Source of the DNA: Escherichia coli
Lineage (GTDB): Bacteria > Pseudomonadota > Gammaproteobacteria > Enterobacterales > Enterobacteriaceae
Assembly (NCBI RefSeq): GCF_030013595.1
Contig: NZ_CP122768.1
Length of the DNA stretch: 64,000 nt
Reading direction: 5' to 3' (one strand)
Notes under the pieces: model-generated
Databases searched by the model: none
Told to the model about the DNA's origin: nothing
The model's input: only the letters and a program-made list of their open reading frames with translations
Program-made: the position numbers and the translations under genes
Shown here: positions 5,567 through 6,757 of the stretch, one piece after another
Position numbering within the stretch: position 1 is the first letter of the stretch
How the letters are laid out: each line of letters begins with the position of its first letter

Positions 5567-5647
5567 CCTCTATAATTGTTTTGGTGAGTTCGATACTTAT
5601 GTCATGATAATAGGTTTACCTATTCATGTTGTCAATCGGTTTGTCGA

Positions 5648-5682
5648 TTTTTTCAAAAAAAACCCACTCGTGGAGTGGGCGG
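5648..5682 (-). terminator. Intrinsic terminator downstream of cI
   Basis: Hairpin cccactc-gtgg-agtggg followed by a T-run on the minus strand. Confidence 0.5.
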
Positions 5683-5702
5683 GGATGTTAAATAATTATC
5701 GC

Positions 5703-6395
5703 TTATGCGAAACGGTGTAGCGTCATAGGCCAACTTACGATTACTTTTCCGTCAATGTGAAGTTGCTCGAAGTCATCTTGTTCGATAGCCCAATCTTTGT
5801 AAGCTGGATTGTCTGAGATCACTGTTAGGGTGTCTTTGATTTTTTGAAGCCTTTTGATGTGCGATGTTCCAGAGTATGTAAAAGCGTATATACCATCGCC
5901 ATTAAATGAGCGAACTGATACGTCAACAAACACCAAGTCCTCAGGGTTTATTGTGCCTTTCATGCTGTCGCCGTGGGCGTTTATTGCTTTGATTGCTGAT
6001 GCTGGTCTGCCGCCAAAAACTCTTGATGCGTATCCTGGTTCTATCGCTATAGATCTGACAATGTCTGGAAAATCAGAGTTATAACTACCAGGTCCGCAAC
6101 TGTATCTGATGTCTAAAACATCCACGACATACGAATCAGTAATCCTGTCTTCTGAAATGTTACGTATTTGGTGTGAGTCTGCAGAGGTCTCGATTTCCAT
6201 TGGACCGACACCAGATGCGAGCCATTCCGGGTTAACGCCCAAAACTTTTGCTATTTCAACTGTTTTCCTGGAACCGTTGGCTTTGTTAAGTAATTGATTG
6301 ACGCTTGACTGGGCCATACCTACTTCTTTGGCCAGCCTGCCTTGCGTAAATTTGGCGTTGCGCATAGCTAAATCAAGTCGTTCTGAAAATGTCAT
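5703..6395 (-). CDS. CI-like prophage repressor (HTH plus S24/LexA-like autopeptidase domain)
   Basis: N-terminal HTH (GRLAKEVGMAQSSVNQLLN), C-terminal S24 motifs (AHGDSM .. IKRL). Confidence 0.85.
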   Translation of the reverse strand: MTFSERLDLAMRNAKFTQGRLAKEVGMAQSSVNQLLNKANGSRKTVEIAKVLGVNPEWLASGVGPMEIETSADSHQIRNISEDRITDSYVVDVLDIRYSCGPGSYNSDFPDIVRSIAIEPGYASRVFGGRPASAIKAINAHGDSMKGTINPEDLVFVDVSVRSFNGDGIYAFTYSGTSHIKRLQKIKDTLTVISDNPAYKDWAIEQDDFEQLHIDGKVIVSWPMTLHRFA

Positions 6396-6478
6396 TGTGA
6401 TCTTCCTCTCCTCTCTATGTTGGGCAGTTTATCGGCTTTCCGATGAAACTTCTAGGTTTAACGTTGAATATCGATTTA

Positions 6479-6504
6479 CCTATTGATAATATGTCGTCAA
6501 TAGG
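6479..6504. promoter_or_regulatory. Putative operator palindrome between cI and cro
   Basis: Inverted repeat cctattga-N10-tcaatagg over the cro ribosome-binding site; related half-sites (tttacctatt) recur at 5604..5627. Confidence 0.45.
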
Positions 6505-6514
6505 AGATGCGATT

Positions 6515-6757
6515 ATGAAACATAAAGCTATAGAAAAAGCCATTGAGATTCTTGGGAGCCAACAAGCCTTAGCCAAGCGATGCGGAAAGGCTCAATCAAC
6601 AGTCTGTGATTGGCTTAACTGCAAGAACAAGATTTCACCCGAATTTGTGCCGTTATTGGTTGCAGCTGTCGACGGAAAGATCCAAGCGTATGAATTTCGT
6701 CCAGATCTACCAGAGCTTTTCCCACACCCAAGCTTAGCGCACACGGGGGAGGAGTGA
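6515..6757 (+). CDS. Cro-like HTH regulator
   Basis: 80-aa product from ATG 6515 with AGGAG ribosome-binding site; divergent from cI; HTH region QQALAKRCGKAQSTVCDWLN. Confidence 0.6.
   Translation: MKHKAIEKAIEILGSQQALAKRCGKAQSTVCDWLNCKNKISPEFVPLLVAAVDGKIQAYEFRPDLPELFPHPSLAHTGEE

Follow-up and report, generated by a model that had tools for sequence, protein, structure and literature searches.

A 14-bp, 434-style dyad as the probable operator of a lambdoid prophage immunity switch in Escherichia coli

We examined the immunity region of a prophage in a 64,000-nucleotide stretch of Escherichia coli DNA (contig NZ_CP122768.1, assembly GCF_030013595.1), referred to below as the window. The region holds a leftward gene for a cI-like repressor (CI), a divergent rightward gene in the cro position, and a leftward operon beyond the end of cI. 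Comparison of the sequence with its relatives indicates, with good confidence, that this is the immunity switch of a lambdoid prophage and that its operators are 14-bp dyads of the 434 style, ATMG-N6-CKAT, the best copy being ATCGGCTTTCCGAT and the centres being mostly T-rich. The original prediction had described a lambda-type switch with related operator copies, the right (OR) and left (OL) clusters, flanking cI, and the comparisons support this architecture. It had also pointed to a 26-bp inverted repeat as an operator, a definition that gave way to the 14-bp dyad as the conserved and enriched unit. The sites, their enrichment and conservation, their overlap with promoter-like hexamers, and their travelling with the cI/cro cassette were all obtained by computation.

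Repeated 14-bp dyads in the two gaps around cI

The repeated control unit in the gaps on either side of cI was the dyad ATMG-N6-CKAT, which all five strong sites fit. A further place between cI and cro (ORmid) is kept as a doubtful candidate. The sites, and the promoter sequences that they overlap or adjoin, are as follows.

OLb, 5610..5623: ATAGGTTTACCTAT, covering positions 7-17 of the PL spacer and the first 3 bp of the PL -10 hexamer
OLa, 5635..5648: ATCGGTTTGTCGAT, adjoining the PL -35 hexamer, with 1 bp in common
ORa, 6431..6444: ATCGGCTTTCCGAT, a perfect 14-bp dyad in the spacer of the putative PRM, at an OR3-like position
ORmid, 6452..6465: CTAGGTTTAACGTT, an uncertain candidate with 6 of 8 outer positions matching, adjoining or overlapping the PR -35 hexamer at an OR2-like position
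ORb, 6470..6483: ATCGATTTACCTAT, filling positions 1-14 of the PR spacer at an OR1-like position and holding tttacctat
ORc, 6500..6513: ATAGGAGATGCGAT, at about +1 to +14 of PR, overlapping the cro Shine-Dalgarno sequence
PL, 5607..5635, minus strand: TTGACA (5635..5630), a 17-nt spacer and TATTAT (5612..5607), 11/12 matches to consensus, reported by the promoter scan
PR (putative), 6464..6492, plus strand: TTGAAT (6464..6469), a 17-nt spacer and TAATAT (6487..6492), 8/12 matches to consensus, assigned by eye
PRM (putative), 6426..6454, minus strand: TAGAAG, a 17-nt spacer and TAAACT, a weak predicted promoter with 7/12 matches and a leader of about 24 nt before the cI ATG

Exact matches to ATMG-N6-CKAT occurred 10 times in the 64 kb, five of them within the two gaps (255 bp together) and five in the other 63.7 kb, while shuffling that preserved the local composition gave a mean of 0.010 exact hits in the gaps and a maximum of 1 in any of 300 shuffles. 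Every dyad with 4-bp arms, 3,328 in total, was also enumerated. In the window gaps, TTTT/AAAA came out on top, which we put down to the runs of T and A next to the cI terminator, followed by ATCGN6CGAT (4 found, 0.15 expected) and ATAGN6CTAT (3 found, 0.06 expected). The same enumeration was run on distant relatives only, namely the Klebsiella phage ST13-OXA48phi12.5 (CI 51% identical) and the IMG/VR contigs L031, L032, L039, and L041 (CI 66 to 67% identical), all of which carry the recognition helix MAQSS[VI]N[QK]LLN. Here, ATCGN6CGAT ranked first, with 25 occurrences against 0.73 expected (p=1e-29). A matrix made from 18 sites of these distant relatives then placed ORa, OLa, OLb, ORb, and ORc at ranks 1, 2, 4, 6, and 9, respectively, of the 127,974 positions in the window.

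For a wider comparison, we used five E. coli loci and 32 IMG/VR loci. CI residues 1-68 and Cro residues 1-58 were identical to those of the window in the five E. coli loci aligned, so these prophages share the immunity specificity of the window. Among same-immunity E. coli prophages, represented by 13 OR and 15 OL sequence variants, only 3 of 40 columns varied in the outer 4+4 bp of the dyads, compared with 8 of 30 in the central 6 bp and 40 of 109 in the other intergenic positions (outer versus other intergenic columns, Fisher p=4e-4). ORa was invariant in all 13 variants of the cI-cro gap, as was TATCGGCTTTCCGATA among the same-immunity relatives, and TGTCAATCGGTTT at OLa hardly changed among the OL variants. 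The most variable stretch, on the other hand, was the 8-bp spacer that separates OLb from OLa. In most relatives OLb read ATAGGTTTACCGAT, which is nearer the consensus, and the right half of ORb was degenerate (CCTGT) in most of those with the same immunity.

The positions of the sites relative to the cI start, PR, and PL were syntenic in three divergent groups. Each distant group had a copy of ORa 32 to 33 bp away from the start of cI, and the place of ORb, directly after the -35 hexamer, was also occupied in Klebsiella phage L006 (ATCTCTTTTGCGAT) and in L031 (AACGGTTTTCCGAT). Syntenic copies of ORc were found in the L031 group (ATAGGAGAACCGAT) and in L006 (ATAGCTGAGGTGAT), its right half differing by specificity type. 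On the other side of cI, the 25-bp spacing of OLa and OLb and their placement relative to PL were identical in L006. The syntenic spot of ORmid carried good sites in L006 (ATCGCATAGGCGAT), L031 (ATAGGAACATCTAT), and L041 (ATCGGAACGCCTAT).

The promoters fitted this arrangement. PL is a strong leftward promoter that would drive the leftward operon, which begins with a gene for a 139-amino-acid (aa) protein; it overlaps both OLa and OLb, and both its hexamers were essentially invariant in relatives. PR and PRM are by-eye assignments and remain putative, the support for them being their positional conservation across groups. In relatives, PR appeared as TTGAAT, 17 nt, and TATTAT, conserved in the alignment of the cI-cro gap. 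For PRM, the outermost base of ORa (6431) was the first T of the putative -10 hexamer, and a -10-like hexamer began at the last T of ORa in three divergent groups (TAAACT in the window, TAGAAT in L031, and TAGGAT in L006).

Several points weigh against taking these dyads as the operators. Once the 3,328 patterns are corrected for, the result for the strict ATCGN6CGAT in the window alone (p=1.8e-5) is borderline; the M and K positions were made degenerate after the window sites had been seen; and the relatives inside each group are not independent samples. At a threshold of 9/12, the promoter scan did not report PR (8/12) or PRM (7/12). In the window, ORmid was weak and shifted by 1 bp from the register of the relatives (the matrix scored 6451, the wrong register), and the conservation of the left half of ORc is confounded because this half overlaps the Shine-Dalgarno sequence. 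Finally, the spacings were irregular (39, 30, and 25 bp), so that a lambda-like pairwise cooperativity is not obvious, and it is the cI promoter that carries the best site, ORa, the reverse of the affinity order of lambda CI.

The 26-bp repeat and other explanations for the dyads

The 26-bp inverted repeat from which the original prediction started (cctattga-N10-tcaatagg, 6479..6504) is present with 8-bp perfect arms and a 10-bp loop, and the motifs of the left cluster were likewise found within 5604..5627, with ataggtttacctat at 5610..5623 and tttacctatt at 5615..5624. The second copy of tttacctatt lies at 6475..6484. A second palindrome had been reported between cI and cro, atcggctttccgat; it exists, at 6431..6444, 1 bp away from the position given (6432..6445), and is the best copy of the 14-bp dyad. 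Further sequence was shared between the two gaps: 5605-5627 resembled 6465-6487 (78%), and 5626-5639 resembled 6491-6504 (86%), with a 5-bp offset between the two matches.

These elements could be read differently, with one dimer binding the 26-bp repeat on wide half-sites at OR, ataggtttacctat being a second version of the same operator at OL, and tttacctatt serving as the half-site. The repeat is perfect over 8+8 bp and brackets the -10 hexamer of PR, and shuffling the 119-bp cI-cro gap yielded inverted arms of 8 bp around a loop of up to 12 bp in only 1.5% of cases. In addition, the exact 10-mer tttacctatt was common to both gaps and found nowhere else in the 64 kb (8 hits with at most one mismatch, against 2.5 expected). 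Even so, we consider this reading unlikely. The repeat was perfect only in the window, L010, and L011, i.e., in 3 of 28 same-immunity loci with the window counted; in the other 25, 5 to 7 of the 8 arm positions paired, although the DNA-binding regions of CI and Cro were identical in the loci aligned. Other prophages of the same immunity had CCTGTTGT...TCAATAGG at this place, with a left arm of CCTATTGT or CCTGTTGC in one locus each. The TGA/TCA extensions of the arms fell in variable columns, and the repeat was absent from the 67% and 51% relatives, which have the same recognition helix. Moreover, the pentamers are opposed, CCTAT...ATAGG at OR and ATAGG...CCTAT at OL, with a spacing of 16 bp at OR and 4 bp at OL, so that one dimer geometry cannot fit both and the two cannot be the same operator. 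The 14-bp dyads account for the repeat in full as the ORb/ORc junction: its left arm is CCTAT, the right half of ORb, followed by TGA, its loop contains the PR -10, and its right arm is TCA followed by ATAGG, the left half of ORc, the 3-bp extension being lineage-specific. Similarly, tttacctatt joins the T-rich centre of a 14-bp site to its right half, and ataggtttacctat is OLb itself.

By sequence comparison, the dyads travel with the cI/cro cassette, and their specificity changes in step with the recognition helix. ATCG-N6-CGAT was retained at syntenic positions in distant cassettes whose helix is MAQSS[VI]N[QK]LLN. Loci with CIs of the BTP1, 4A7, and RAH1 type (47% identity, helix VAQPTIWRLTSG) had ATAC-N6-GTAT at the same positions; two of the three such loci contained no ATCG-type match and the third had none in its cI-cro gap. 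E. coli 025542-1 (locus L043, NZ_CP035832.1 2171735-2194060) carries an unrelated cI/cro cassette (CI 40% identical) in the prophage backbone that the window also has, and neither gap contained an exact dyad. This locus is a clear example of immunity-cassette swapping. Its cassette occupies locus positions 1719..3508, and its right-hand boundary is apparently within the 3' end of cro, as the window's relatives have the same tail, ...PSLAHTEDEK. The backbone genes that it has in common with the window include those for Rha, replication, Q, the porin, and a methyltransferase.

A binder other than CI or Cro, either the 139-aa CII-like helix-turn-helix (HTH) protein or a host factor, would also be conceivable, given that three HTH proteins are encoded within 1.6 kb and that the 139-aa gene has OLa and OLb immediately in front of it, which would make autoregulation plausible. 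The leftward HTH protein of E. coli 025542-1 argues against this, since its DNA-binding domain is identical to that of the 139-aa protein and yet the locus, with its other cassette, has no exact dyad in its gaps; the 139-aa protein is thus unlikely to bind them. In Klebsiella phage L006, furthermore, the annotation gives only small hypothetical genes downstream of cI, yet dyads were present on both sides of cI, and the dyad sequence shifted with the CI/Cro recognition helix. We therefore give such a regulator little credence and regard the dyads as sites for CI and Cro, which always co-vary, so that sequence alone cannot separate the two as binder.

That the repeats reflect nothing more than a chance or compositional likeness of two AT-rich promoter regions, without operator function, is very improbable: both gaps are indeed AT-rich promoter DNA, and a base-frequency estimate gave about 4 exact matches in 64 kb, close to the five outside the switch, one of them in a promoter-like gap unrelated to the immunity type, but five exact copies in 255 bp stand against 0.010 expected, the same dyad was found independently in distant relatives with a cross-validated matrix ranking, and its outer 4+4 bp are selectively conserved and change with the recognition helix.

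Three further candidate sites were rejected. The promoter-like match just mentioned, at 15409..15422 (ATCGGTATGGCTAT), equalled OLb in its matrix score (16.9). It falls in the spacer of a promoter-like region, and 70 bp downstream of it comes a prophage gene for an OmpC/NmpC-type porin (14242..15339, minus strand). The match was identical in E. coli 025542-1, with its unrelated cassette, and had diverged both in UMNF18, which has the same immunity (ATCGGTACGGTTAT), and upstream of K-12 nmpC (ATCAATGTGATTAT), so it is probably a chance match. A possible "ORd" at 6530..6543 lies inside cro, 30 bp after ORc, where the A-I-E-K-A-I codons would by chance give a dyad about 1 time in 3; the window copy matched at 6 of 8 positions. 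The third candidate, 5698..5711 (ATCGCTTATGCGAA), overlaps the cI stop codon and was not conserved in relatives.

The same helix reads ATCG-N6-CGAT in E. coli prophages, Klebsiella phages, and AT-rich viral contigs, and the only systematic difference between cassettes lay at position 5, the inner base, where the window type has ATCGG/CCGAT and the Klebsiella type ATCGC/GCGAT. It is a speculative idea, which we hold to be rather improbable, that this one base, or the T-rich centre, governs mutual immunity among these phages, so that a new immunity type could arise with the helix unaltered; if true, these cassettes would form a natural series of new immunity types arising by inner-base or indirect-readout change. 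In a smaller variant of the idea, the changes of the window lineage, with ORb nearer the consensus and a perfect 26-bp repeat around the PR -10, might tighten the repression of PR in this lineage.

Genes of the switch, its relatives, and a model for its operation

The genes and the terminator around the two gaps are listed below.

5147..5566, minus strand: first gene of the PL operon, 139 aa, C-terminal HTH_3 domain; ATG at 5566 or 5557 (5557 in RefSeq relatives)
5654..5680, minus strand: intrinsic terminator of cI, with an 8-bp stem (5662..5680) of 5 G-C pairs followed by a T-run, from the terminator scan
5703..6395, minus strand: cI-like repressor gene, an open reading frame (ORF) of 230 aa, with an N-terminal 434-like HTH domain and a C-terminal S24 domain of the LexA/UmuD self-cleavage type
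6515..6757, plus strand: cro, 80 aa, YdaS-type HTH; Shine-Dalgarno AGGAG at 6502..6506

CI matched Peptidase_S24 (E=2e-17) and HTH_19/HTH_3 in Pfam, and PHROG 4, "transcriptional repressor" (E=5e-54). It carries GDSM (Ser144), Lys181, and Cys100-Gly101, and thus the Ser/Lys dyad of a predicted self-cleavage domain. When residues 1-75 were searched against the PDB with phmmer, the best solved relative was the 434 repressor (E=5e-5, aligned over residues 15-65), a remote similarity. Cro matched PF15943 (E=7e-15, above the gathering score) and PHROG 35, "transcriptional repressor" (E=5e-23), its nearest solved relatives being an XPH1 protein (5w8y) and a Cro protein (3bd1). The two genes are divergent, with cI on the minus strand and cro on the plus strand, and are separated by the 119-bp gap. 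The left motif cluster sits between the cI terminator, whose stem sequence changed in relatives while the hairpin persisted (read by eye off the alignment), and the first leftward gene. The product of that gene matched HTH_3 in Pfam (E=8e-12) and PHROG 4836, "CII-like regulator" (E=8e-51), and the gene occupies the position of lambda N in the PL operon. No cII-like gene was seen 3' of cro, which is followed by a BssS-like gene on the opposite strand and then by rha. The BssS-family gene (6842..7093, minus strand; PF13991, E=4e-15), which has its own terminator hairpin at 6785..6813, opposes transcription from PR, and other small genes take its position in relatives. A search of 4500..7500 against Rfam gave no match at E<=0.1, and the idea of an RNA element was dropped.

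From this layout, the switch would operate as follows. In a lysogen, CI dimers on OLa/OLb and ORb/ORc would silence PL and PR, and occupation of ORa by excess CI or by Cro would turn cI transcription off, an order of filling that is presumed, as are the assignment of proteins to sites and the transcription start sites. Upon DNA damage and the SOS response, the S24 domain would cleave CI, presumably in a RecA-dependent manner, and PR and PL would fire. The YdaS-type Cro might then take the same dyads and lock in lytic growth.

The 1.4-kb module was 100% identical to that of prophages in strains of porcine enterotoxigenic E. coli (ETEC), including ETEC1732, ETEC1734, rl0044, and UMNF18, and was found at 91 to 100% identity (coverage of at least 80%) in 24 of 5,426 complete E. 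coli genomes (~0.4%). Against 50,697 phage records, a megablast search with 5100..6800 gave a match to the leftward gene only, and a tblastn search of phage records with CI gave none above 60% identity, the best being 51%. Six of the site strings were looked for in a searchable set of papers, none of which contained any of them; the literature mentioning UMNF18 does not treat this prophage. The distinct operator specificity that had been suggested for the region is supported by these results, as it matched no characterised phage that we found. The immunity specificity is new and uncharacterised, within the well-known lambda/434 class and with a YdaS-type Cro.

A different distribution was seen at the porin-upstream locus (15300..15620), where the window was 100% identical to ETEC1732, ETEC1734, ETEC4085, and rl0044. 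At the immunity locus, ETEC1732, ETEC1734, and rl0044 were 100% and ETEC4085 was 99.9% identical. In UMNF18 the immunity locus was 100% identical and the porin-upstream region only 81%, a contrast indicating that the prophage is a mosaic between these strains and that the window derives from a pig-derived strain resembling ETEC1732. A same-immunity relative in E. coli LH50-c (L004, locus positions 1..136) has a ParE-like toxin gene farther down the leftward operon, recalling paaR2-paaA2-parE2 of CP-933P; no ParE-like gene was seen among the window ORFs examined. At about 9860..11200 of the window, two overlapping ORFs on the minus strand (9964..10854 and 10851..11177, 296 and 108 aa) resemble orfB/orfA of IS3-family insertion sequences and separate an O-like replication gene (8914..9825) from a DnaC-like gene (11269..12027). 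The replication genes of E. coli 025542-1 are nearly contiguous and lack the IS3-like element, so the window prophage may be replication-defective.

The sites amount to a testable operator map for an immunity type carried by about 0.4% of complete E. coli genomes, porcine ETEC among the carriers, and the map predicts which prophages are mutually immune to superinfection. Together with the relatives in other genera, they also give a cross-genus cassette series (ATCGG, ATCGC, and ATAC types) in which the divergence of repressor specificity can be followed.

Comparison with known systems

In phage 434, the operators are 14 bp long, ACAA-N6-TTGT, and occur at OR1-3 and OL1-3. The window resembles 434 in the related N-terminal domain of CI, in having 14-bp dyads whose halves each keep their four outer bp while the 6-bp centre varies and is mostly A/T-rich, in the clusters over PR/PRM and PL, and in a repressor with an S24 cleavage domain. 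It differs in the half-site (ATCG/ATAG instead of ACAA) and in the recognition helix (QSSVNQLLN, compared with QQSIEQLEN in 434). Since the sites here read ATCG/ATAG-N6-CGAT/CTAT, i.e., the same geometry with a different specificity, the region is not imm434. Other differences are the YdaS-type Cro, in place of the 434-Cro-like paralogue of the repressor domain, the irregular spacing of the sites, and the extra site over the cro ribosome-binding site.

In gene order and logic the region corresponds to lambda. Its cI runs leftward and ends in a terminator of its own, cro runs rightward, and the repressor has a LexA/UmuD-type S24 domain. Operators occupy the spacer of PR and the core of PRM, and about 0.8 kb from these a further cluster lies on PL. 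The operators are shorter than those of lambda (14 bp against 17 bp) and unrelated to them in sequence, and it is PRM, not PR, that carries the best-matching site. At the head of the PL operon is the gene for the HTH "CII-like regulator" and not N, and no cII follows cro.

In the prophage CP-933P of E. coli O157:H7, experiments have shown that a YdaS-type protein serves as Cro; there, the footprints of YdaS and the repressor overlap across PRM and PR, YdaS prefers PRM, and an OL/PL copy exists (PMC8630535). The operators of CP-933P are four 18-bp palindromes with the consensus GTTTAGTAA (PMC8630535). The window likewise has a YdaS-family protein (PF15943) in the Cro position; in contrast to CP-933P, its repressor is a LexA-like S24 CI and not PaaR2, there is no ydaT 3' of cro, and the operators are 14-bp ATCG-N6-CGAT dyads instead of 18-bp palindromes.

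The closest phage homologues of CI were those of the Klebsiella phages ST13-OXA48phi12.5 and Mulock (51%) and of BTP1, ST104, and 4A7 (~47%). No experimental operator definition for the cassettes of these groups was found in the literature searched. Both have a YdaS-type Cro, and in both the 14-bp dyads have the geometry and the positions seen in the window. The Klebsiella cassette also shares the recognition helix and the outer ATCG with the window, while its sites read ATCGC-N4-GCGAT, with C and not G at position 5; the BTP1/4A7 type, ATAC-N6-GTAT, goes with a different helix. The switch described here is not a new kind of system: its architecture and logic are those of lambda and 434.

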